NCBI GenBank assembly: GCA_030018415.1 | Contig: JASEGC010000001.1 | Location: forward strand, 407,033-471,032 | Direction: 5' to 3' | DNA from: Candidatus Aenigmatarchaeota archaeon | Lineage (GTDB): Archaea; Aenigmatarchaeota; Aenigmatarchaeia; CG10238-14 | DNA: 64,000 nt | Part shown: one piece after another, positions 10,441 to 56,858 of the stretch | How the letters are laid out: every line of letters begins with the position of its first letter | Numbering within the stretch: the first letter of the stretch is position 1 | Translations under genes and position numbers: made by a program | The notes under the pieces: generated by a model | Database searches by the model: none | Told to the model about the DNA's origin: nothing | Seen by the model: only the letters and a program-made list of their open reading frames with translations

Positions 10441-11853
10441 TTATTTAATCTCTATCCTTTTACCTTCCTTGGCTAATTTGATCCTCGTCATTTTCTCATC
10501 TATCAACTCCAAGAAAAGACTGGGGAATTCAGAATGAACCGGTATCAAGATTTCAGGACAAACTTCTTTCAGTATCCCAGACAACTGTTCAGGAGAGCAA
10601 TGACCAGAAGTATGAGCAAACTTCATCTTCAACCCGCAGAGTTTAATCCAATTCTTCAGTCTTTCGTAAGTAAAGACCTCTTCCTCAGAATATGGCTCAG
10701 CCTTGCCGTAGACGTAAGTACCAGGAACGTCCTTGTCAACAGGCTTGAACTGAATCATCGTGCTTATCCCGTTAGTTGTATAAAGCAAGTATTCTTCCGG
10801 GTTCTTGAGTATCTTCTCTCTTCCATCAGGACCCCAGATAAACCACTCTTCAGCCAATTCTGGATCTTCGATCATTTTCTTCTCATAGTTGCTCCTTCCT
10901 TCACTAAAAACTTCCACGTACTCATCAGTTCCTCTTTGTCTCAGTCTGTTCAAGTATACCAAGAAATCTCCCCTACCAGGCAAACCTTCGAGCAGTCCGG
11001 TCTTTTCTGTTTCCAACAAGATGTAGGCCAGTCTCGATTCTATAATCAACTTTCGTCCATGTTTTTTAGCGACTTCAGCAACAGTCCTTACTCTATCCAA
11101 ATCCACAGAAGAACCATCGTATATTATCAAGTCATCAGTCTTACCCATGATAAAATCGATCTTCCTTTCTACATCTTTCTCAGTCGGTAATTTATGCTTG
11201 TCTGCCTCTCTGGGCTCTTTAGCTAGGTTTGTTCCCTCACAAATCATGCACTTAATATCCTCGTTCTTCAAGTGTTTAACAAAGGCCTTGGTCAAGACAT
11301 TCATGAAACCGGATATTCTGAAGTCGCCAGTGTAAACTATCGTCCCAGCAGACGTATGGATGATGAAAGCATGTGCACCTGGAACAGAGTGGTCGACAGC
11401 GAAAGGATCGACAGTTATGTCTTTTATCACCACATCCTTACCAGTCTTTATCTCTTTGAATTCTAGATGTCCAATCTTCCTTTCCCATGTTTGGTTGTAA
11501 GTCCTGTTCCTGATTTTAATCAAATCTCTCGAATATCTGCCAGTCCAAATAGGTATGTCTTCTCTTATCAAAGGAAGGTATCCGTAATGGTCCATGTGCG
11601 CATGTGACAGTAGGATAGCATCGACGAACGGCTTGCCTCGAGAAAACCTGTAGAAATTATTGAACCTCGGTAAAACGTTGGTCTTGAACAAGTCTTCGAT
11701 GTTTGTCGGCCTCAACTCAGGCCATTCGAAGTAAACCCCTTCTTTTGAGAAAGAAGTCCCGAAATCCAGGAAGACTCTAGTATCTTTATCCTCTAGAAGA
11801 ATCTTGTTACCGCCTATCTCGTTGATACCGCCGAAGAAAGTTAAATTTACCAT
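10441..11853 (-). CDS. metallo-beta-lactamase/beta-CASP ribonuclease, archaeal RNase J-like
   Basis: 470 aa. N-terminus FFGGINEIGGNKILLED, HAHMDHYG motif, and beta-CASP-like C-terminal H motif (AHTSGH). Confidence 0.7.
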   Translation of the reverse strand: MVNLTFFGGINEIGGNKILLEDKDTRVFLDFGTSFSKEGVYFEWPELRPTNIEDLFKTNVLPRFNNFYRFSRGKPFVDAILLSHAHMDHYGYLPLIREDIPIWTGRYSRDLIKIRNRTYNQTWERKIGHLEFKEIKTGKDVVIKDITVDPFAVDHSVPGAHAFIIHTSAGTIVYTGDFRISGFMNVLTKAFVKHLKNEDIKCMICEGTNLAKEPREADKHKLPTEKDVERKIDFIMGKTDDLIIYDGSSVDLDRVRTVAEVAKKHGRKLIIESRLAYILLETEKTGLLEGLPGRGDFLVYLNRLRQRGTDEYVEVFSEGRSNYEKKMIEDPELAEEWFIWGPDGREKILKNPEEYLLYTTNGISTMIQFKPVDKDVPGTYVYGKAEPYSEEEVFTYERLKNWIKLCGLKMKFAHTSGHCSPEQLSGILKEVCPEILIPVHSEFPSLFLELIDEKMTRIKLAKEGKRIEIK

Positions 11854-11892: not shown

Positions 11893-12526
11893 ATGTCGAT
11901 AAAAGCAGTTCTGTTTGATCTGGACCAGACGTTGATAGATTTTATTAAGATGAAGGTTGAGGCATGCCGATCGGCCATAAAGGCGATGATCAAAGCTGGT
12001 TTAAAAATCGACAAGAGAGAAGGATTGAAAAAGTTGATGGAAACTTACCACAGACTGGGTATAGAATCCGACGTAGCATTCAGTAGATTCCTGGAAGAAC
12101 AAACTGGTAGAATCGACGAAGAAATCTTGAAAGTCGGGATAGATGCATACTTGGAGACTAAGCAACGTTTCCTTAAGCCATATCCATACGTCCTAGAGAC
12201 TTTAGAAACTTTAAAAAACCTGAATTTAAAGCTTGGAATAGTGACTGATGCCCCCAGAAAAAAAGCGATGGGTAGGTTGAATGCTATGGGCATTGTTCAT
12301 TTTTTTTGACGTGATAATAACACTCGATGAGGCTGGAGTCAAGAAACCAAGTAAATTACCCTTTGTACTTGCGATGGAAGAGCTCAGATCGAAACCAGGA
12401 GAAATTTTATTCGTAGGCGACAGCTTAAAAAGGGATATCAAACCTGCTGAAAAATTGGGGATGAAAACCCTACTGATAAAAAAATACGAAGACCTGAAAA
12501 AAATTGAAAAAAAACTCAAAAGTTAG
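11893..12526 (+). pseudogene. HAD-superfamily hydrolase, reading frame broken by one extra T in a T8 run (12300..12307)
   Basis: ORFs 11893..12309 (AVLFDLDQTLIDF, LGIVTDAPRK) and 12281..12526 (FDVIITLDEAGVKKP...FVGDSLKRDI) are the N and C halves of one HAD protein. Deleting one T joins them as ...GIVHFFDVIITLDE. Confidence 0.8.
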
Positions 12527-13161: not shown

Positions 13162-15444
13162 TTGCCCAAAAAAGAAATAACAGAAAGAATATTAGAAGTA
13201 ATGAAAGATCCAACAAGAATCAGAAACATCGCAACATCCTCGCAATAGAATTAGTACCACGCTAATTCTACGAGATTGTCCACCATGGTAAAACAACACT
13301 TACAGATAATTTAGCAATGTTGGCAGGAATGATTTCAGAGAAAGTAGCAGGTGACGTAGAGAAAGGAATGCTTACGTGGTTTGACGAAAGGTTAAATTAA
13401 CCCGTTAACAGGAACGTAAGCGTCAGCTAACCATCTACGGCGCAAATAAAAAAGCGTAAACGTTTCGATGGTTCATGAGTATGAGGGAAAGGATTATTTA
13501 ATAAATCTCGTTGATACACCGGGGCATGTCGACTTCGGCGGGGACGTAATTAAAACACGTTAAACCCGTGCGATGCGAGCGGTCGATGGAACTATAGTTC
13601 TAGTGTGTGCTGTAGAAGGAATAATGCCTCAAACAGAAACAGTGTTCAGACAAGCGTTAAGAGAAAGAGTGAAACCTGTTCTCTTCATCAACAAGGTTGA
13701 TAGGTTAATAAAAGAGTTAAAACTGACGCCAGAATCGATGCAGAAAAGGTTTGAAGATATTATTCGAGATGTTAACATCATCATCCAAAAATATGTAGAG
13801 GAAAGATACAAGGAAAAATGGCTTGTCAGTGTAGCAGAAGGAACGGTAGCTTTCGGCTCTGCGTACAGGAAATGGGCCATATCGATTCCTTTCATGCAGA
13901 AGACTGGTATCAATTTCAAAGATATAATAGACATGGTTAACCAAGGCAGAGATGAAGATTTAGCAAAAAAGGCACCCCTACATCAAGTCGTCCTCGACAT
14001 GATAATCAAACATCTACCGAATCCTTTGGAAGCACAAAAGTACAGACTAGAAAAGGTCTGGAAGGGTAGTTTGAGTACAGATGTAGGGAAGGACATGCTT
14101 GCTTGTAATCCGGACGGAAAGTTAGCGATGATCGTCACAAAAATGGTTCCTGATCCTCACGTAGGGTTTGTCGCAACTGGAAGATTATTCTCTGGAAAAA
14201 TTTTTAAGGGTAAAAATGTTCGATTGATAGGCCTACATAAGACTGAAAAAATACAGCAAGTTGCCATCTATAAAGGAATAACGAGAATTCCTGTAGAAGA
14301 AGTTACAGCTGGCAACATAGCTGCTGTCGTTGGTATCTCAGATGCTTTCACTGGAGAGACTGTCTGCGACGCAGAACAAGTCATCGAGCCTTTTGAAGCA
14401 ATAAAACACATTTTTGAGCCAGTCGTCACCAAAGCAATAGAACCGAAGAATCCGATGGACCTGCCGAAATTGATAAATGCATTGAAAAAGATAGGTAGGG
14501 AGGACACAACACTCCAAGTCAAGATTAACGAAGAGACTGGAGAGTACCTTGTCTCTGGGTTAGGAGAGTTACACCTAGACGCAAAAGTAGAGAGAAAACT
14601 AAAAGAAATGGGTATAGAAGTTGAGGCTTCTCCACCTATTGTAGTATACAGGGAAACTATTGCAACAAAGTCTCGTGTCATAGAGGGCAAATCACCGAAC
14701 AAACACAACAAATTCTATTTCTTCGTCGAACCACTACCTGAAAATGTAATTGAAGCCATGAAACTTGGTGACATACCTTCTGATATTGAAATAAAGAAGA
14801 AGAATATTGAACTACAGAAAAAACTTTCTGTTTTGGGAATGAACTACGAAGATGTGAAGAACATACTGGTTATCCATAGAAAAAACATGCTCATCGACAG
14901 AACTAAGGGAATACAATACTTGAACGAAGTTATAGAAATGATAAAAGAAGGTTTTGTCAGCATAATAGAAGAGGGACCTATGTCGAGGGAACCTTGCGTT
15001 GGTTTGAAAGTTGTATTGACAGATGCTGAGTTGCATGAAGATCCTGTTCATAGAGGACCAGGTCAAGTTTTACCGGCCGTGAAGTATGCGATCAGAACTG
15101 GAATGATGGATGCTGGAATCGTCTTGATGGAACCAAAGCAGATGATCAGGATTGATGTGCCCACAGAATTGATGGGTGGGGTATTAAGAGAGGTTCAAAA
15201 TAGACGAGGAAAGATCCTCGACATATCAGAAGAAAAAGGGGCGTCAATTCTTCAAGCAAAAGTACCAGTCGCAGAAATATTTGGTTTTGATGCAACTTTA
15301 AAATCAATCACAGGTGGGAAAGGTTTTTATAGTTTGATAGATGTTATATTTGAGAAGTTGCCCAGAGAATTACAGGATCAGACAGTCATAAAGATCAGGA
15401 AAAGAAAAGGTCTGAGTGAGAAGATACCAAAAATAGAAGAATAA
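13162..15444 (+). CDS. fusA: translation elongation factor 2 (aEF-2), coding region interrupted by four putative BHB mini-introns
   Basis: Exons are 13162..13244, 13277..13388, 13409..13445, 13460..13548 and 13564..15444, totalling 2202 nt (733 aa). Conserved blocks are [32 protein letters not shown] and NKVDRLI, and the C-terminal 623 aa are intact (ORF track 13573..15444). Unspliced, the 5' part hits stops at 13246, 13398, 13457 and 13561. Confidence 0.85.
13245..13276 (+). other. aEF-2 putative BHB intron 1 (32 nt)
   Basis: Central helix CTCG(13239..13242)/CGAG(13271..13274). 3-nt bulges CA|A and AT|T. Perfect 9-bp inner helix 13246..13254/13262..13270 with a 7-nt loop. Splicing joins ca|t into a His codon, giving ...IATSSHVHHGKTT. 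Confidence 0.7.
13389..13408 (+). other. aEF-2 putative BHB intron 2 (20 nt)
   Basis: Central helix GACG(13383..13386)/CGTT(13403..13406). Bulges AA|A and AA|C. Inner 4-bp helix GGTT(13390..13393)/AACC(13399..13402). Splicing joins FDE to QERKRQLTI. Confidence 0.7.
13446..13459 (+). other. aEF-2 putative BHB intron 3 (14 nt)
   Basis: Central helix GCGC(13440..13443)/GCGT(13454..13457). Bulges AA|A and AA|A. Outer helix ACG(13437..13439)/CGT(13461..13463). Splicing joins a|ac into an Asn codon, giving YGAN-VSMVH. Confidence 0.65.
13549..13563 (+). other. aEF-2 putative BHB intron 4 (15 nt, in frame, contains TAA)
   Basis: Central helix GACG(13543..13546)/CGTT(13558..13561). Bulges TA|A and AA|A. 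5-bp outer exon-exon helix 13538..13542/13565..13569. Splicing joins GGDV to TRAMRAVDG. Confidence 0.7.
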
Positions 15445-19043: not shown

Positions 19044-22000
19044 ATGAAAAAATTATATTTTATTTTGATTTTCTCCTTATCTTTTCTATTTTTATTTACC
19101 TTTGTTGAGGCAGTTTTTCCTGTAGAACCTGTAACAGTTGAGAGTATAAAAGACTTCGAATACAAAGGACACATAATCCAATTCAAAGATAAGCCAGTTT
19201 TGGCTTATAAATTAGAATTAAAGGGTCTTACAGAAGAAGAGAAATTAGCTAAGATGGACGAACACAGGAATAAAATTTTGAATATTCATTCTCTATTCAA
19301 AAAACATATCAAAGACCTGGAAATTGAACGATTAGGTATTGCTTCTATTACTAGAATAATTCCTGACGGAAATGTCATGGGAGAACATACAGAGTTATTC
19401 AATGGAATTGCTCTCAATGCATCAAAAGAAGAAGTAGAAGAAATCAAGAAATTTGAGGAAGTCAAAGCAGTTTATCCTAATGTAGAAGTTCATGCTTTCT
19501 TGATGAATTCGATTCCGTTGATTAATGCACATAGTGTTTGGGGGTCAAAAGATGATTACAACAGAGATATAACTGGCAAAGGTATTACCATAGCAATAAT
19601 TGATACTGGTATAGATTACACTCATCCTGATCTAGATGAAGGAAAGGTTATTGGACAATATTGTTTTTGTTGCGATATTTATGTCGAAGGTACAGCTTGT
19701 GGTGATAACGATCCTGGATGTTGTCCCGATGGAACAGCAATCGATGAAAACGCTATGGATGATAATGGTCACGGCACCCACTGTGCCGGCATATCAGCTG
19801 GAAATGGGGTATTAAAAGGGGTAGCACCAGACGCCAAATTACGGGCATATAAAGTTCTTAGTTCAAAGGGGGAGGGTCTCCTAAGTGATGTAATCAAAGG
19901 CATCGAGAAAGCAGTTGAAGATGATGTTGATGTTATTTCATTGAGTCTTGGTGCTCCACTTGGTGATCCTGGTGACGTACTATCTCAGGTAGTCGATACA
20001 GCTGTTGATGCTGGTGTTGTAGTCGTAATTGCTGCCGGAAATGAAGGACCAGTGCCTATGAGTATAGGCTCTCCTGCTGCTGCAAAAAAAGCAATAACTG
20101 TTGGAGCATCGACCAAGGATGATGAAATTGCATTCTTTAGTTCCAGAGGACCAGTTATGCATAAAGATGGAAATATAATAAAACCGGATGTTGTTGCTCC
20201 TGGACATTTAATATGTTCTGCGAGATTGCCTGGATTTGAGCCTTGGAAGAGAAGATCTATATACCAAAAATGTGTAGATAATGACCACGTTTTATTATCT
20301 GGCACTTCAATGGCGTGTCCACATGTTGCTGGTGCTGTGGCTTTACTGAAACAAGCTCATCCAGACTGGACCCCCGAGGATATAAAATCCGCTCTGATGT
20401 CAACTGCAAAGGGTTTGGATTTGGAAAGAGTAGGTCCTAATACTCAAGGATCAGGGAGAATTGATGTTCTTAACGCAAAAAATACCCCAATCCTACTATC
20501 GCCTAACTCGATGTTAATTGACGTTACTTCCATTAAAAAACATAGTGTAAATGTAAACTTAGTCAATCGGAATGATGAACAGATGGCGCTTGAACTGAGT
20601 GCCAAGACTTGGAGTAAAATTCCGTATGAATTAATAGAAGAACAAAACATAGAATTGCTTCCAGCTGAGGAAAAAGAAATAGAAATAGGGTTAGACATAA
20701 AAGAAGTCATACCATACGGTGATAATCATGCGATGTTTCAATTCAAGACAAATAACTATCCGGATCAACACATCCCTGTTTCAATCGATAGAGTACCTGC
20801 ATTACTAAGGATGTGGACTACTTCTTTGCCCAAAGAGCCATTACCCATAATTGAGTATTTAAAAGTCGGAAAATTGAAGGACTACTGGACTGGAAAAGGT
20901 GATAATATTCCAGATGTTTTGTTAAAAAGGTTTAACATGAAATTGTATGCCATAGAAACGCCTTCTAATCCCATTTTATCCCCTTCAAAACTTTGGGAAA
21001 GGGTTGAAACATTTGGAGGTGATTTAGAGATTGTTGACAGTGATGGTGATTCAGAAGACGAAATTTTTGTTGGTTTAAGTACAAAAGGAGGACTGAGCAA
21101 ATTGAATGATAAAGGCGATACCATCTGGAAAAAAGATAGTGGTGGGGGAATTATAGAATTAGGGGATGTTCAAGGCGATTCAAAAAAAGAAATAGCAAGT
21201 AGTGACAGGCTATATGCTACAGATTCTACGAATGGGGAATTATTATGGGTAAAAGATAACCCTACAAAACGAATCGGCACGACAGTTTACGGCTCCCGTG
21301 TACTAGATTTAAAGGTAGGAGACATTAATGGAGATTTGCAAAATGAGATAGTTGCATATGGAATTTTTGATTATGGTTGGCCGAATTTAAGAGATCCTAT
21401 AGTTTTGGCTAGAAATCCAAATGGTGATGAACTATGGAGATTTCAGACAACAGGACAGAGTGATTATTCATACACAGATGAAGAATCCTATACAAATTTC
21501 ATTAACATTCAAGATTTAGACAAAGATGGTTCAGTCGAAATTGTCGTCTGTATGTATGAAGTAGATATGAATGAAGGTACAGAAGGAAAACTAGTTGTTT
21601 TAAACGGTAATGATGGTTCTCTCTTATGGGAAGAGAAGTTCGAATCGTCTTTTTACGACCCAAATTTTATCGATGTGAATGGGGATGGATATGATGATAT
21701 CTTATTAGGTTCAAAGAGTGGAAGGGTTTATGCTATTGATTATAAGACTAAATTTGTCATATGGAAGACTGCGTTGAGAGGGAAAGTCATGCGTATTTTC
21801 GTCAAAGATTTGAATCAAGATGGAAGATCTGAAATAGTAGCTTCTAGCAATCCGTATGCCTACATTTTGGATCTTGATGGGAACATTAAAGGAAGAACTT
21901 TGATAGATTGGGATAGGGAAGGATTGGTCGTTAATCAACTGTTTTTTGATATGAATACAGCTGACTTTGATGATGATGGAATTTCAGATATAACAGTTGC

Positions 22001-22303
22001 TTACACGCCAAATTTTTATGTTGCAATGATGTCCGGATTTAATCCCAATATACCATTGCCAACTTTTATAGACACATTTTCGATTGTCGATCAGGCGTGT
22101 ATTAAAATGTTGATTTAAACAATGATAAAAAAGTGGACATCGTTGACGTAGCAAAAGTTGCAAGAAACTTCGGGAAGAACAAACAAACAGATCCCAACTG
22201 GGACGAAACAAAAAAAGCAGACATTAACGGTGACGAAAAAATCAATATCGTTGATATAGCTACAGTTGCTAGATATTTTGGAAGGGGTTGTTACTTTCTC
22301 TGA
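19044..22303 (+). CDS. secreted subtilisin-like (S8) protease with FG-GAP/VCBS-like repeats and a C-terminal dockerin; last domain out of frame
   Basis: Signal peptide. Catalytic D/H/S blocks IIDTGIDYTHPDL, HGTHCAGI and GTSMACPHVAG. Repeats DVNGDGYDDILLG and DLNQDGRSEIVAS. After the stop at 22116..22118, frame 2 reads NVDLNNDKKVDIVDVAKVARNFGK...DINGDEKINIVDIATVARYFG (dockerin) up to TGA 22301..22303. One missing A in the run 22104..22107 would join them. Confidence 0.8.
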
Positions 22304-23195: not shown

Positions 23196-23651
23196 ATGTT
23201 TGGTTTTGGAAAAAAGGAAATCGAAATATTTCTCGAGAAATACAATTATTCACCCGGAGAGACGATCAGAGGAAGAATCTCATTAAAACTTAATAAACCA
23301 ATTCATGCGAGAGCATTGAAAGTTGGTTTGGTAGGAGAGAAGTTTGTAACAGAAACTGTAAGAGATTCAGGCGGAAGCATGCGTTCTCGTCAAAAAAGAA
23401 AAAACGTTTATAGCTTTGAAATGCCATTAGACTCAGAAAAAGAATATTTACAAGGAGAGTACGATTTTGAAATAAAGATACCGACAAACTTATTACAGAC
23501 ATCTTTACCTGAGGGCATAATCAGTGATGTGATAAAAACATACAAGATTCTTACTGGAAGTGAATCAAACGTTTTTTGGTATGTCATCGCAAAATTAGAT
23601 GTTCCAATGAAATTTGACGTTTCTGAAAGAATCCAAATAAACATAGGATAG
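23196..23651 (+). CDS. hypothetical protein, Spo0M/arrestin-like fold suggested
   Basis: 151 aa. The N-terminus GETIRGRISLKLNKPIHARALKVGLVGE resembles SpoOM-family proteins. Weak call. Confidence 0.3.
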   Translation: MFGFGKKEIEIFLEKYNYSPGETIRGRISLKLNKPIHARALKVGLVGEKFVTETVRDSGGSMRSRQKRKNVYSFEMPLDSEKEYLQGEYDFEIKIPTNLLQTSLPEGIISDVIKTYKILTGSESNVFWYVIAKLDVPMKFDVSERIQINIG

Positions 23652-40056: not shown

Positions 40057-40123
40057 GTCTTTAAAACTAACTGTAAAAAGATTTAAAACCTTCTAATTGA
40101 GTAGAAATTAATTGAGTGATACT

Positions 40124-43100
40124 ATGAAGCAAAACTTACTCGTCCTTGACGTGGACTATATCGTCGAAGGAAACAAAGCTATAACAAGGCTTTTTTGCAA
40201 AGACGAAAAAGGTAAAACAGCCCTTGTTATGGATTCTAATTTCGAACCTTATTTTTACGTTATGCCAACTAAAGGAACTCTTGAAAAATTGAAGAAAAAA
40301 ATAGAAGGACTTGACACAAAAAACTTAGAAGCGAAAATCCTGAGGGTAGAGACTGTTGAAAAGAATTGGATGAACGAAGAAACAAAGCTGATTAAAGTTA
40401 CCATCGATAACCCTAGGAGGATTCCAGATGTGAGGAATGCGATAAAAGACTGGAAAGAAGTAGAAGAAACTTACGAGTATAACATCACCTATTACCGCAG
40501 GTACATGATAGATAAACAAATCAAACCAATGGGTTGGGTCGAAGTAGAAGGAGAATTAAAAGAGAGCAACGGATACCAAGTCGATAGAATCATCGAGGCC
40601 AGTTCTGTCAAAGCTACAGACATGGAAAAAGATATCGATTTCAAAGTCTTAGCTTTCGACACAGAGTTCGTCGAAGAAGATGGGAAATCAAAGCTCATCA
40701 TGCTCAGCCTAGTTTTCGATGGAAAATACAAGAGAGTCTTAACTAGCTGCGACTGGAAGGATAAACCGAATTATGTCGAGGTTGTAAGAGATGAGAAAGA
40801 GATCATCCAAAGATTCATGGATATAGTTAAGGAAAAAGACCCAGATTTCATAGTCGGTTACAATTCTGACGGTTTTGACATCCCAAAGATAAAGGATAGA
40901 GCTACGGTATACAAGATGCCTTTGAAGTTGGGAAGAGATAATACCCCTGTCCATGTTGTCAGAAGAGGAAGGATCAGTTCTGCAAAAACTAAGGGAAGGG
41001 TACATATCGATTTGTTCAATTTCATTGATCACATTCTATCTGCTTCTATGCGTAGCGAGGTTTTAACTTTAGATGAAGTTGCTCAAGAATTGCTTGGAAT
41101 TGGAAAGAGGAAAATGAAATACAAGGAAATGGTTGAGATATGGAGCAAAAAAGAACAATTAGGAAGGCTTGCTGAATATTCGCTTTGGGATTCGGAGTTG
41201 ACGCTGAAATTAGCTGAGCATATATTGCCACAGATATTTTCGATAAGCAGGTTAACTGGTTTGCTGCCCTTCGATGCTTCGAGAAATACATACTCTCAAC
41301 TGATTGAGGCATTCTTGATGAGAAGGGCTTTTACAGATAATGTCTTGATTCCAAACAAGCCAAAAACCGAAGAGATAGAGAGAAGAAGGATGGCTCCTGT
41401 TTATAAGGGAGCGATAGTAATCGAGCCTAAAAAAGGAATTCATTCAGATATTTTAGTTTTCGATTTCAGGAGTCTTCCTCCTTGGGAAAAAACTTACGTG
41501 AAAGACCCAGCTGGCTTTATAAAAGTAGTGGAGATAGGCAATTTTGTAGAAAGGTTCCAGAAGAACGGAAAAGTGATCAGAGAAAGCAGAAGCCTTATAA
41601 CTGAATTAAATGGCTGGAAAGCCCTTACTTTCGATGAAGAGAAAAACAAAGTTTGTTGGAAGCCTATTAAAGCAGTCATCAAGCATGAAATTAAATGCCC
41701 TTATTTATTGAAGATCACGACTGAACAAGGCAAACAAATAACGATAACGCCGAATCATAGCATTTTTTCCCTCGATAATGACGGAAAACTAACTCTAGTA
41801 AGAGGAGATGAATTAAGGATCGGAACGAATCTCATACTTCTGAAAAGGATTCCGGTTAGGGAAAATTTAAAGAAATTAGATGTTATGGAACTCTTATCAT
41901 CTCTTTCTCAAAAAATAACGTCAGACTTGTTGATCATTCTTCCAAGGAAGAAACTTCCTCACAAAAAAAGGCTTAAAACTTGGATGAACATCCTAAACGA
42001 ACTGAGAGGGGCCTCTTCGTTAGAAGAGTTGCGCGAGAGGCTTAAGTATCATAGGGCAACGATTAGGAAGAACCTTGTATTGCTGAGAAGGAAGGGATTG
42101 ATAGATTACAGAAATTATAGTGGAATAAAACTCCTTCAAGAAGGAGAGAATTATTTGAAGTTTGTTCTAAACCTTAGACCAACGAGAAAGCGAGGGTTTC
42201 TGCAAGCAAGGTTTAACGACATTAAAAACATTAACGTACCGGAGAAGTTAAAGAAAGACTTATTCCTTAAACAATCAAGAGGAAGATGGAAGAGGATTCT
42301 ACCTTGTGTATTAGAGTTAAACCGTAATACTTGTTGGAGTTTTGGAATTTACGTAGCAGAGGGTTGGATGACTAAACATTCGAGGATCTATTTTTCCACT
42401 TCGGATGAACTCATCAAAAATAGACTGTTAAGAACCCTCTCTTACTTCGAACCGAGTGAATATAAGGATGGGAAGGGTTTTGAAATTTCCATCTCGAACA
42501 AGCCCTTTGCTCTTCTGCTCATCAAACTTTTTGGGCATAATTCCCATCATAAGCATCTTAATCCTTTGCTCTTACAGTTACAGAAAAACCTGAAATTAAA
42601 GTTAATAGAAGGAATGATAGATGGTGATGGCTCTATTGGAGAAACGAAATTTAAATACACCTCTATCTCTGAGAGGTTGATCGATGACTTGAATTTATTA
42701 CTTCTCTCGTTGAGTGTGGGAAGAACATCTTTCATAAGTTCCGGAAAAATAAAGAACCTTTACGTTTACCAGTCACTTGGAAAGATAAAGATAAGAAAAG
42801 GTGTAAGGGAGAGTCATCCACTCTATCTCATCCCAAGGAATTATGTAGAGGATCATATAACATCAACTCTTAAAAATGCACATCGAGGTTCACGAATCGA
42901 TATTCAGAAAGTTGCAGAAAATCTAGTAATCAATGGATGTTTTCCCGAAAAATTAAAATTCTTCTTTGGAAATTGTGGTTTAGAACAGATTAAAAAAATC
43001 GAGAGAATTAAGTATAACGGTTGGGTTTATGATATTTCTGTGAAAGATACTGAAAAATTCTTCGCTGGGAATGGTCTGATATTAGTACATAACTCGTTGT

Positions 43101-43546
43101 ACCCCACGATAATCGTTTCCCACAATATTTCTCCAGAAACTCTTAATTGTGAGCACTCAGAATGTAAAGAAAAAAATAAAGTTCCCGAAAGCAAATGGCA
43201 TTTTTGCACCAGAAAGGAGGGCTTCATACCTAAACATATAAGAGACCTAATCGAAACGAGGAAGAAAATAAAGGAAAAGATGAAAGAGGTTAGAAAGGAT
43301 TCGGTGGAATGGAAGCGGCTGGACAATGAGCAGTATGCTCTAAAAATTTTAGCCAACGCGAGCTATGGTTTTATGGGATATATAGCCGCTAAATGGTATT
43401 GTCGGGAGTGTGCAAGCGCAACTGCGACATTTGGAAGAGCTTATATAACCAAGGTAATAGAGATGGCAAAAGCAAGTGGATTTAAAATTTTGTATGCTGA
43501 CACCGATTCTTGCATGGTAACTATAGAAAAAAGGGGGAGAAAATGA
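40124..43546 (+). CDS. polB: family B DNA polymerase, N-terminal polypeptide (exonuclease plus palm motifs A-C), contains an intein
   Basis: Exo motifs LAFDTEF, YNSDGFDIPKI and YSLWDSELT. Motif A DFR|intein|SLYPTII. Motif B KILANASYGF. Motif C ILYADTDS. Stops 11 codons after motif C. The ATG at 40124 is preferred over the TTG at 40112. Confidence 0.9.
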   Translation: MKQNLLVLDVDYIVEGNKAITRLFCKDEKGKTALVMDSNFEPYFYVMPTKGTLEKLKKKIEGLDTKNLEAKILRVETVEKNWMNEETKLIKVTIDNPRRIPDVRNAIKDWKEVEETYEYNITYYRRYMIDKQIKPMGWVEVEGELKESNGYQVDRIIEASSVKATDMEKDIDFKVLAFDTEFVEEDGKSKLIMLSLVFDGKYKRVLTSCDWKDKPNYVEVVRDEKEIIQRFMDIVKEKDPDFIVGYNSDGFDIPKIKDRATVYKMPLKLGRDNTPVHVVRRGRISSAKTKGRVHIDLFNFIDHILSASMRSEVLTLDEVAQELLGIGKRKMKYKEMVEIWSKKEQLGRLAEYSLWDSELTLKLAEHILPQIFSISRLTGLLPFDASRNTYSQLIEAFLMRRAFTDNVLIPNKPKTEEIERRRMAPVYKGAIVIEPKKGIHSDILVFDFRSLPPWEKTYVKDPAGFIKVVEIGNFVERFQKNGKVIRESRSLITELNGWKALTFDEEKNKVCWKPIKAVIKHEIKCPYLLKITTEQGKQITITPNHSIFSLDNDGKLTLVRGDELRIGTNLILLKRIPVRENLKKLDVMELLSSLSQKITSDLLIILPRKKLPHKKRLKTWMNILNELRGASSLEELRERLKYHRATIRKNLVLLRRKGLIDYRNYSGIKLLQEGENYLKFVLNLRPTRKRGFLQARFNDIKNINVPEKLKKDLFLKQSRGRWKRILPCVLELNRNTCWSFGIYVAEGWMTKHSRIYFSTSDELIKNRLLRTLSYFEPSEYKDGKGFEISISNKPFALLLIKLFGHNSHHKHLNPLLLQLQKNLKLKLIEGMIDGDGSIGETKFKYTSISERLIDDLNLLLLSLSVGRTSFISSGKIKNLYVYQSLGKIKIRKGVRESHPLYLIPRNYVEDHITSTLKNAHRGSRIDIQKVAENLVINGCFPEKLKFFFGNCGLEQIKKIERIKYNGWVYDISVKDTEKFFAGNGLILVHNSLYPTIIVSHNISPETLNCEHSECKEKNKVPESKWHFCTRKEGFIPKHIRDLIETRKKIKEKMKEVRKDSVEWKRLDNEQYALKILANASYGFMGYIAAKWYCRECASATATFGRAYITKVIEMAKASGFKILYADTDSCMVTIEKRGRK
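41471..43093 (+). mobile_element. intein (541 aa) with LAGLIDADG endonuclease domain, inserted in PolB motif A
   Basis: Begins with Ser after VFDFR and ends ...LILVHN before SLYPTII. Block B is TPNHSIF. LAGLIDADG motifs are FGIYVAEGW and LIEGMIDGDGS. Confidence 0.85.
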
Positions 43547-43863
43547 ATTGGAAAGAATTTTTAAAACCAGACTGGAGAAAAATCCTAGTTTTCGTGATTT
43601 CAATAATCATGGGCATTGTTGTTACTCATCCCTTAATCTACCCAGAATACTCTTATTCTTTCCCTTTCCTTCCATTACCTTTTGAGACTGTAGAGATAAG
43701 AGCTGTCCCCTGCCCTCCTGGTGCCCATGAACGTATACCAGGCGTAATACCAGATTGTATGGAAAGTGTTATCATTCTCCAGAATATTCTATTAAATCTT
43801 GTTAGTTATTATCTCATCTCCTGTCTCATAGTTTGGATTTACGATAAGGTGAGGAAGAAATGA
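43543..43863 (+). CDS. small membrane protein (106 aa) occupying the gap between the two PolB polypeptide genes
   Basis: ATGA overlaps at both ends: ATG 43543 overlaps the PolB-N TGA at 43544..43546, and its own TGA at 43861..43863 overlaps the PolB-C ATG at 43860. Two hydrophobic helices flank a Cys/Pro-rich loop (VPCPPGAHERIPGVIPDC). Confidence 0.5.
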   Translation: MNWKEFLKPDWRKILVFVISIIMGIVVTHPLIYPEYSYSFPFLPLPFETVEIRAVPCPPGAHERIPGVIPDCMESVIILQNILLNLVSYYLISCLIVWIYDKVRKK

Positions 43864-44555
43864 AGAAAAGAGAGCAATTAATTAAAAAGGCTGAAGAATT
43901 TATAGAAAAAGTTAACGAACAACTTCCAGGAATAATTGAACTAGAATTCAGAGACCTGTATGAAGGGGGGATATTTGTAGCAAGAAGGGAAAAAGAAGTT
44001 GGAGCGAAGAAAAGATATGCTCTAATTGATTATCAAGGGAATTTAGAAGTCAGAGGATTCGAAGCTATAAGAAGAGATTGGTGCCAGTTAAGCAAGGACA
44101 TACAAAGAAAAGTTCTGACTATAATCCTTAGAGATAAAGACCCTGCTAAAGCCGTTCAACTAGTCAGAGAAACAATTAAAAAAATAAAAAGTGGGGATGT
44201 GAAGTTGGAAGACCTAACGATTTTTGAACAGATAACAAGGCCTCTATCTTCTTACGAACAGATAGGACCGCACGTTAAGGCAGCTCAGAAATCAAAGGCC
44301 AAGGGCAGACTTGTGGGCGAGGGTAGTGTCATCGGTTTTGTCATAGTCAAAGGTTCGGGTAGTATTTCAGATCGTGCCATGCCGGTTGAAGACGTAAAAG
44401 AAGGAGAGTACGACCCAGAATATTATATCAACAACCAAGTCTTACCAGCAGCGATGCGCGTTCTACAGGCTTTAGAGATAACAGAACAACAAGTTTTATC
44501 TGGAAGAGTCCAGGCTAAGTTAGGAGAATGGTTTAAAAAAGTTAACTACAAGTAA
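43860..44555 (+). CDS. polB: family B DNA polymerase, C-terminal polypeptide (thumb domain)
   Basis: EFIEKVNEQLPGIIELEFRDLYEGGIFV...KKRYALID...VRGFEAIRRDWC...ITRPLSSYEQIGPHVKAA...YYINNQVLPA aligns colinearly with the region after motif C of archaeal PolB. Confidence 0.85.
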   Translation: MKKREQLIKKAEEFIEKVNEQLPGIIELEFRDLYEGGIFVARREKEVGAKKRYALIDYQGNLEVRGFEAIRRDWCQLSKDIQRKVLTIILRDKDPAKAVQLVRETIKKIKSGDVKLEDLTIFEQITRPLSSYEQIGPHVKAAQKSKAKGRLVGEGSVIGFVIVKGSGSISDRAMPVEDVKEGEYDPEYYINNQVLPAAMRVLQALEITEQQVLSGRVQAKLGEWFKKVNYK

Positions 44556-56638: not shown

Positions 56639-56715
56639 TGCTTTTCACAAACAATTAAGATAACTTAAAATATTAAAAAATGCCCTTGTCGGGATTCGAA
56701 CCCGAATCACAGGCT

Positions 56716-56728
56716 TGCTGCTATCCAA
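56716..56728 (-). other. 13-nt BHB intron at the canonical 37/38 position of tRNA-Arg
   Basis: Intron TTGGATAGCAGCA. Central helix CTGC/GCAG (index 47-50 / 60-63), bulges GG|T and CA|A. The outer helix is the anticodon stem. Confidence 0.75.
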
Positions 56729-56736
56729 CCGCAGGC

Positions 56737-56749
56737 TTATACACGTGTT
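56737..56749 (-). other. 13-nt BHB intron inside the anticodon-stem 5' strand (between tRNA positions 29 and 30) of tRNA-Arg
   Basis: Intron AACACGTGTATAA. Central helix ATAC/GTAT (tRNA index 26-29 / 39-42), 9-nt loop, junctions 2 nt 3' of each strand (AG|A and AA|G). Confidence 0.7.
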
Positions 56750-56858
56750 CTGTATCTTATCCAAGTTGGACCACAAGGGCAACGATAAACTATTTAAAAG
56801 ATATAATCCCTAAGAAGAAAATACTTAATAAAATCTTAAAGGTGTTGGATTGGCAGAA

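Follow-up and report, generated by a model that had tools for sequence, protein, structure and literature searches.

The analysed window, 64,000 nucleotides of contig JASEGC010000001.1 from a Candidatus Aenigmatarchaeota archaeon (assembly GCA_030018415.1, positions 407,033 to 471,032 of the forward strand), contains a gene for the archaeal elongation factor 2 (aEF-2, in the following EF-2) whose proximal coding region is broken by four short inserts. These inserts have the helix, the cut positions and the restored product by which bulge-helix-bulge (BHB) introns are recognised in sequence and hence are placed in that class; most probably they are introns of the messenger RNA, spliced out by the tRNA-splicing endonuclease EndA and an RtcB-type ligase. 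In the DNA the EF-2 frame runs into stops at TAG 13246, TAA 13398, TAA 13457 and TAA 13561, three of the four inserts being out of frame and all four containing a stop codon. Removal of the four segments, recomputed here, gave 2202 nt and 733 codons with a single terminal stop, in agreement with the first-pass annotation of this DNA. The spliced product is colinear with intact 733-aa orthologues and shows 86% identity to them over 100% of its length. Alignment of the DNA with the intact syntenic orthologue of a relative (L002:10001-12202) revealed no more and no fewer than four clean insertions, with lengths of 32, 20, 14 and 15 nt; apart from them the 2.2 kb of EF-2 are without lesion and every GTPase motif is retained.

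The Shine-Dalgarno sequence, the TTG start, the four stops and the distal open reading frame (ORF) of 623 aa reported earlier were found at the correct coordinates on re-reading. A non-ATG start codon is also used by the orthologue P0011. The distal ORF (13573..15444) is intact but lacks the G1-G3 motifs, and it is this ORF that gene callers report (P0013). The gene stands in the order RpoB/A, L30e, NusA, S12, S7, (HAD), Hjc, EF-2, EF-1alpha, which is common to the intact relative. The window is AT-rich (36% GC), and those of its other genes that were scanned against Pfam showed full-length domain coverage except for a frameshifted HAD-like gene and a split gene for a family-B DNA polymerase (PolB).

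The geometry of the inserts was compared with a canonical BHB rule in which each strand of the central helix is a stretch of 4 nt that stops 2 nt short of a cut, strand A at the 5' cut and strand B at the 3' cut. The strands pair in antiparallel orientation, and after each of them comes a bulge of 3 nt that is cut past its second nucleotide. The rule was checked against tRNA numbering. The same spliced product can be obtained with 1, 3, 4 and 3 boundary placements for inserts 1-4, respectively, and in each case exactly one placement gives a central helix with all four pairs; in all four inserts this placement also has a supporting inner or outer helix. With the window itself as the null, the chance of such a fit was 0.023, 0.066, 0.084 and 0.063 for inserts 1-4, and the joint chance was 8e-6, falling to 4e-10 once a flanking helix of 3 bp or more was added as a requirement. 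Re-examination showed all the central helices, bulges, inner helices and outer helices described in the first-pass annotation to be present. Insert 2 has in addition a distal 6-bp exon-exon helix (13372-77:13414-19), insert 3 an outer helix ACG/CGT of 3 bp together with a 6-bp helix ACCATC/GATGGT, and insert 4 a G+C-rich 5-bp outer exon-exon helix (13538-42:13565-69). Inserts 3 and 4, of 14-15 nt, are without an inner helix, and inserts 2 and 4 share the same central helix GACG/CGTT. The four central helices were recovered in unconstrained local minimum free energy (MFE) folds, in which inserts 1 and 2 form a clean bulge of 3 nt at their 5' site and inserts 3 and 4 form one at their 3' site, and all four structures were kept in both the MFE and the centroid structure of a global fold of 471 nt. 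The local MFE fold of insert 1 had a z-score of -4.0.

Insert 1 belongs to a family that occupies a single codon in the EF-2 genes of several lineages. Twenty-two GTDB relatives were compared, most of which have a contiguous EF-2. The gene of L017, a groundwater Aenigmatarchaeota metagenome-assembled genome (MAG) with a 786-kb contig and 66% protein identity, is broken at the same place and reads IATSSQ followed by a stop. Its insert of 31 nt consists, from 5' to 3' and with the cut marked by ^, of CTCG, CA^A, TAGATTTAG, TAATTG, CTATATCTA, CGAG and TT^T. With a pattern whose sole anchors were the BHB core and the surrounding exon sequence, JGI metagenomes were then searched, and four more EF-2 genes (L027-L030) with an insert of 25-42 nt at the same His codon were obtained. 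The family thus comprises six EF-2 genes, including that of the window, from independent projects and assemblies, with insert lengths of 25-42 nt. A search for the same insertions in related genomes had been proposed in the first-pass annotation; it yielded insert 1 in five other EF-2 genes but inserts 2-4 in none. The five other carriers have insert 1 only, their EF-2 being otherwise intact.

All six genes fold alike, with an outer helix ACA/UGU, a central helix CUCG/CGAG (three of the four pairs in L029), a CAA bulge and an inner hairpin that varies in length. The claim that the junction of intron 1 splits the codon and restores the conserved P-loop His holds for the whole family, since the same CA/T splice regenerates this residue in each of the six genes. 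In the alignment of the inserts 96.4% of the cells were paired, compared with 24-40% when the partner was slid, and three inner-stem pairs showed compensatory changes, the observed score being reached by 1 of 500 shuffles. The insert of L027 contains a wholly different stem, TGAAGT/ACTTCA. In the other five carriers the stem TAGAATT/AATTCTA is nearly invariant although neighbouring synonymous sites are saturated. In a quick neighbour-joining tree the carriers fell into at least four clades, each beside intron-less sisters, and this scattered distribution therefore indicates repeated loss or lateral spread of insert 1.

The same P-loop is the site of a second kind of insertion. In EF-2 of L015, L016, L018, L024 and L017 an in-frame insertion of about 1.4-1.6 kb follows HHGK/C; it is intein-like, with ends GK/C…HN/T, and its site lies 16 nt downstream of the intron-1 site. 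A related EF-2 (P0106) carries intein Pfam domains. Like intron 1, this element is a parasitic-looking insertion in the highly conserved G1 motif, but it is in frame, far longer, and presumably removed at the protein level. The idea that intron 1 protects the gene from intein homing was weakened by L017, which carries both the intron and the intein-like insertion. Several apparent candidates for further carriers were discarded: the truncated relatives P0021 and P0064 merely lie at contig ends, and matches of 717-726 aa (about 98% coverage) are ordinary proteins called from an internal Met. The end of another contig (L004:1-90) is a perfect inverted repeat of the adjoining EF-2 coding sequence, that is, a palindromic assembly artefact and not an insertion.

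A further insert of this type was flagged in the rpS10 gene of L013, an Aenigmatarchaeota MAG (CAZYBR010000004.1), by an all-against-all homology screen of the fetched loci. This insert folds as a strict textbook hBHBh' motif, and its excision gives the sequence TLKTPSG-D-GTGHGNATW, colinear with the homologues; the rpS10 gene of the window itself is intact. With its predicted BHB intron, rpS10 would be the second protein-coding gene of this kind in the Aenigmatarchaeota.

Mini-introns were also found in tRNA genes of the window. A lower-threshold Rfam scan recovered two further tRNAs, of 100 and 91 nt, which had been missed or mis-called by the gathering-threshold run and by standard ARAGORN. 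The introns were assigned by exhaustive removal of BHB-compatible segments. The anticodon arm of tRNA-Arg(GCG) contains 37 nt where the Rfam model expects 11, and removal of two BHB-bounded segments, 56737-56749 (at a 29/30-like position) and 56716-56728 (at the canonical position 37/38), leaves a perfect 76-nt cloverleaf. In tRNA-Asp(GUC) one intron of 13 nt is located in the D-arm (896-908) and one of 16 nt near the variable loop (933-948 or 931-946, the boundary being ambiguous). The intron calls made by ARAGORN for these two genes, Tyr(ata) and Ile(aat), were forced and were rejected in favour of the clean Arg(GCG) and Asp(GUC) obtained by BHB-guided removal. Two of the three tRNA genes of the window hence carry two mini-introns each, of 13-16 nt and partly at non-canonical positions. 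The tRNA-Arg intron at 37/38 has the same architecture of an hBH motif plus loop as EF-2 inserts 3 and 4, and several of the tRNA mini-introns have the A…AA termini seen in inserts 2-4. Because maturation of both tRNAs would require removal of mini-introns at non-canonical positions, these genes point to an EndA activity in the organism that can process relaxed motifs and introns at such positions. This fits the published link in DPANN archaea between EndA enzymes with an extra loop and heavily disrupted tRNA genes (PMC5829648).

Table 1. Locations of the EF-2 elements, their homologues in relatives and the intron-bearing tRNA genes. Positions refer to the window unless a locus of a relative is named; introns are candidates, and ^ marks the predicted cut.
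Feature	Location	Strand	Length (nt)	Structure or basis
Shine-Dalgarno GGAGGTG of EF-2	13150-56	+		direct sequence reading
TTG start codon of EF-2	13162-64	+		direct sequence reading
EF-2 exon 1	13162..13244	+		ends …IRNIATSS and CA of His codon; alignment to orthologue
Intron 1	13245..13276	+	32	splits P-loop His codon CA/T; central helix CTCG 13239-42 : CGAG 13271-74; 5' bulge CA^A; inner stem 9-10 bp; 3' site AT^T; relaxed HBh'
EF-2 exon 2	13277..13388	+		ends …MLTWFDE; alignment to orthologue
Intron 2	13389..13408	+	20	central helix GACG 13383-86 : CGTT 13403-06; bulges AA^A and AA^C; 5-bp inner stem GGTTA/TAACC; HBh'
EF-2 exon 3	13409..13445	+		ends with A of Asn codon; alignment to orthologue
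Intron 3	13446..13459	+	14	central helix GCGC 13440-43 : GCGT 13454-57; 3-nt 3' bulge AA^A; hBH
EF-2 exon 4	13460..13548	+		alignment to orthologue
Intron 4	13549..13563	+	15	in frame but with TAA; central helix GACG 13543-46 : CGTT 13558-61; 3' bulge AA^A; hBH
EF-2 exon 5	13564..15444	+		holds 623-aa ORF from ATG 13573
Insert-1 homologue	L017:8367-8397		31	
Insert-1 homologue	L027 (reverse complement 99-123)			
Insert-1 homologue	L028:733-763			
Insert-1 homologue	L029:1234-1275			
Insert-1 homologue	L030:1525-1566			
rpS10 insert	L013:15682-15716		35	central helix GTGG/CCAT; 5-bp inner and 4-bp outer helix
tRNA-Arg(GCG)	56681..56780	-		two 13-nt BHB mini-introns; Rfam tRNA match 37 bits
tRNA-Asp(GUC)	874..975	+		two BHB mini-introns; Rfam, BHB-guided removal

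The proposed course of events would be as follows. After transcription each insert, together with the flanking exon bases, would fold locally into the 4-bp helix, with a 3-nt bulge or a loop after each helix strand. EndA would cut both strands past the second bulge nucleotide, an RtcB-type ligase would join the exons, and the intron would be released, probably as a circle. The spliced mRNA would encode a normal EF-2 of 733 aa with intact G1-G3 motifs; translation of unspliced mRNA would terminate after 28 codons, and initiation at the internal ATG could give only a GTPase without P-loop. Cleavage, ligation, the enzymes involved and efficient splicing of all four inserts are what we infer from these data. 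Confidence in splicing is highest for insert 1; it is lower for inserts 2-4, for which geometry, statistics and the analogy with the tRNA mini-introns of the same genome suggest the same fate.

Several observations weigh against this interpretation. Inserts 2-4 were seen in this genome only and are without comparative or covariation support, and the folding z-scores are weak for insert 2 (-1.8) and insert 4 (-1.5). The substrate geometry of the endonuclease, as claimed in the first-pass annotation, stands in so far as the canonical rule of helix and cut fits all four inserts, but in the folds most motifs are relaxed, inserts 1 and 2 being of the HBh' form and inserts 3 and 4 of the hBH form, and not strict hBHBh'. 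The MFE structure of insert 1 puts the 3' site in a 2x2 internal loop, in that of insert 2 the central helix extends across the 3' bulge, and inserts 3 and 4 have the 5' site in a hairpin loop. When the whole window was scanned naively for segments with BHB boundaries that mend an ORF on removal, 727 matches were obtained against 714-746 in slid-partner controls, that is, no enrichment; gene junctions made up most of the matches, and the scan was uninformative. In favour of the interpretation, when exon sequences of 16 relatives were threaded into the structures of the window, the exon-exon helices were fully paired only with the window exons (5/5 against 0-4/5 for the outer helix of insert 4, 6/6 against 2-5/6 for that of insert 2), a result that is only suggestive of co-adaptation of the exons to the inserts, as the test is biased by the helices having been defined on the window sequence. 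Enrichment of G+C at third codon positions around the introns, considered as a sign of helix selection, gave no clear signal. Neither an EndA nor an RtcB gene was found within the 64-kb window, and the adjacent HAD-like gene has a homopolymer frameshift, so that lesions do occur in the assembly or in the genome.

The EF-2 gene might instead be a decaying pseudogene in which the inserts are random lesions, the functional protein being encoded elsewhere in the genome or supplied by a host. The frame is indeed broken four times, gene disruption occurs nearby in the HAD-like gene (T8 run) and in the split PolB, and the visible part of the genome amounts to 64 kb. Random insertions, however, would not all create a 4-bp helix with cuts 2 nt into both bulges (8e-6 to 4e-10), and decay is difficult to reconcile with 2.2 kb of remaining sequence that carries no lesion, keeps all GTPase motifs at 86% identity to the orthologues and lies in the conserved S12-S7-EF2-EF1a context. 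Insert 1 has moreover been kept, with covariation, at the same codon in five lineages whose EF-2 is otherwise intact, and a pseudogene is considered quite unlikely. That the inserts are errors of assembly or sequencing, absent from the real genome, is judged very unlikely. The sequence is derived from a metagenome, and a second assembly of this organism confirms inserts 3 and 4 only and not inserts 1 and 2: the Logan contig L001 (SRR23186779) is identical to the window at 5326 of 5326 positions from 13423 on, including inserts 3 and 4, and was made by a different assembler, possibly from the same reads. This contig begins 14 nt past insert 2, where the break could reflect a branch in the de Bruijn graph (allele heterogeneity) or a drop in coverage. 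Look-ups with neighbouring genes for a second assembly spanning inserts 1 and 2 found no record. Against an error speak the identity of inserts 3 and 4 in the two assemblies and the homologues of insert 1 in five assemblies of other projects and samples. Within the window no insert is found at another place, insert 1 having no second copy, and the pattern search for insert 1 gave no match in viral contigs. To our knowledge, no error mode produces structured insertions of 14-32 nt whose removal restores an ORF exactly. In the HAD-like hydrolase gene (11893-12526) the frameshift lies in the T8 run at 12296-12310, the orthologue of L002 being a single protein of 210 aa; it stems from faulty sequencing or is a true lesion, and in both cases it is a break of another kind than the EF-2 inserts.

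The inserts could also be passed over during translation of an unspliced mRNA, by programmed bypassing as in T4 gene 60 and the mitochondrial byps of Magnusiomyces. In the six carriers of insert 1 a stop codon (TAG; TGA in L027) after the 5'-junction codon opens a hairpin, which is superficially like gene 60, and at insert 3 the take-off and landing codons do match, both being Asn (AAT 13445-47, AAC 13459-61). The latter match arises because AAA is repeated in the two bulges of insert 3, and there are no matching codons at inserts 1, 2 and 4 (CAA versus ATT, GAA versus TAA, GTA versus TAA). Bypassing at insert 1 would place Gln at the P-loop position occupied by His in every homologue, whereas BHB splicing gives His in all six carriers, and to make an abundant essential protein by way of four hops in a row would be very inefficient; this explanation appears highly improbable. 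It is unlikely, too, that the inserts are removed by machinery other than EndA/RtcB, or that some of them only, such as insert 1, are spliced, with the gene then being non-functional or regulated by inefficient splicing. Comparative support is confined to insert 1, whereas inserts 2-4, seen in no other genome, have the weaker folding statistics, and neither enzyme was seen in the window. The geometry is nevertheless exactly that of EndA substrates, including the tRNA mini-introns of this genome, and no Rfam family, be it a ribozyme or a group I or group II intron, matched this part of the sequence, either with the gathering threshold or with a cut-off of E<=1. Elements of 14-15 nt are, as far as we know, too small for any self-splicing. 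Self-splicing group I and II introns and small ribozymes were thus ruled out by size together with the lack of Rfam matches, and inteins by the size of 14-32 nt, the three out-of-frame inserts and the stops in all four. Splicing of the four inserts by EndA and RtcB remains the favoured reading.

In the literature searched, the BHB introns reported from archaeal mRNA are that of cbf5 in Crenarchaeota (PMC2738675) and one in the 5' untranslated region (UTR) of Haloferax HVO_1309 (PMC7714728), and a paper of 2025 still cites the cbf5 work alone (PMC12397907). The statement of the first-pass annotation that four such introns in an essential translation GTPase would be without precedent agrees with these records (PMC7714728); within the searched literature the putative EF-2 introns are unprecedented in number, size and host gene. 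The closest comparison is the cbf5 intron (Watanabe 2002; Yokobori 2009, PMC2738675), which is likewise bounded by a BHB and breaks the frame in the DNA, the conserved ORF being restored by its removal. As with insert 1, the cbf5 introns are patchily distributed among relatives, with gain and loss. The differences are considerable: there is one intron per gene in cbf5 and four in EF-2; the hosts are Crenarchaeota in one case and DPANN Aenigmatarchaeota in the other, where the interrupted genes are the G-domain region of EF-2 and, in a relative, rpS10; and two of the EF-2 introns have merely 14-15 nt and no inner helix. Splicing of cbf5 by the tRNA-splicing endonuclease has been shown experimentally, whereas that of EF-2 is deduced from sequence. 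Intron 1 also differs from the known BHB cases in mRNA in forming a conserved family at a single P-loop codon. The intron of Haloferax volcanii HVO_1309 (PMC7714728) is, like the EF-2 inserts, carried by an mRNA substrate of the archaeal splicing endonuclease, but it lies in an untranslated leader and leaves the reading frame uninterrupted.

Archaeal tRNA introns (Marck & Grosjean 2003; Sugahara 2007; PMC5829648) have in common with the EF-2 inserts the 4-bp helix, the 3-nt bulges and the cut after the second bulge nucleotide, as well as the size range, the relaxed HBh' and hBH forms and the occurrence of multiple introns at non-canonical positions. In EF-2, however, the substrate is the coding region of an mRNA, so that exon pairing is under codon constraint and splicing competes with translation. 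Some likeness exists also to the splicing of the eukaryotic HAC1 and XBP1 mRNAs by IRE1 and RtcB, which is independent of the spliceosome, guided by structure and directed at a short coding intron, with RtcB-type ligation and a change of frame. There the endonuclease is IRE1, the motif is a twin stem-loop and the process is regulated by stress, whereas no evidence of regulation was found for EF-2.

Other features of the window were recorded in the course of the analysis. The PolB gene (40112-44555) holds an intein with a LAGLIDADG domain and is split after the YADTDS motif, at which point an ORF for a predicted membrane protein of 106 aa (43543-43863) is inserted with ATGA stop/start overlaps on both sides; the PolB of relatives is one uninterrupted protein of 820-838 aa. 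A large BHB intron (43544-43859) was considered and rejected, as 31 central-helix matches were found at plausible in-frame junctions against 62 expected, none with flanking helices. The PolB gene is split, and the small ORF inserted in it is coupled to it in translation. At 2914-7254 (also L002:1695-6023) a single ORF of 1446 aa comprises subunit A' of RNA polymerase and the C-terminal part of its subunit B (Rpb2_4-7 and Rpb1_1-4), whereas L010 encodes the two by separate genes that are not in the same frame, and the ORF looks like a gene fusion of this sub-lineage. Compared with the syntenic L002 the window has two additional genes inserted in the conserved cluster: one on the minus strand (10441-11853), between S7 and HAD, for a metallo-beta-lactamase/RMMBL (beta-CASP-like) RNase of 470 aa, and one on the plus strand (19044-22118) for a subtilase of 1024 aa with FG-GAP/beta-propeller repeats. 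A protein of 151 aa (23196-23651; also L002:16604-17059) matched Arrestin_N (E = 2e-9) and Arrestin_C (E = 4e-6), which is unusual for an archaeon.

For two decades no BHB intron within the coding region of an archaeal gene has been accepted other than that of cbf5 in Crenarchaeota. If the EF-2 inserts are spliced, an essential and highly expressed translation GTPase would depend on four splicing events catalysed by protein enzymes, mRNA splicing would occur in a second archaeal superphylum, and mRNA introns down to 14 nt would be functional; the P-loop intron family would bear, too, on the question of how splicing can go together with the coupling of transcription and translation. The splicing of archaeal protein genes thus appears to be commoner than the lone textbook case suggests. 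Gene callers present genes of this type as N-terminally truncated, as with P0013 (623 aa), or as pseudogenes, and such mis-calling would then bias estimates of DPANN completeness, marker-gene phylogenies and metabolic reconstructions.

It is tempting to speculate, though with some hesitation, that BHB introns in protein genes are a recurrent and possibly mobile feature of the Aenigmatarchaeota and not a single curiosity. In that event the patchy family at the P-loop, the rpS10 intron and the four EF-2 introns in the most conserved GTPase motifs would point to intron gain by reverse splicing or by homing into conserved sites, and the annotation of essential marker genes of DPANN archaea as truncated or missing would be a systematic error. 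Such introns could also couple the production of translation factors to the tRNA-splicing capacity of the cell. The conserved yet patchy P-loop family would, if spliced, offer a tractable system for the study of intron gain, loss and mobility in prokaryotes.

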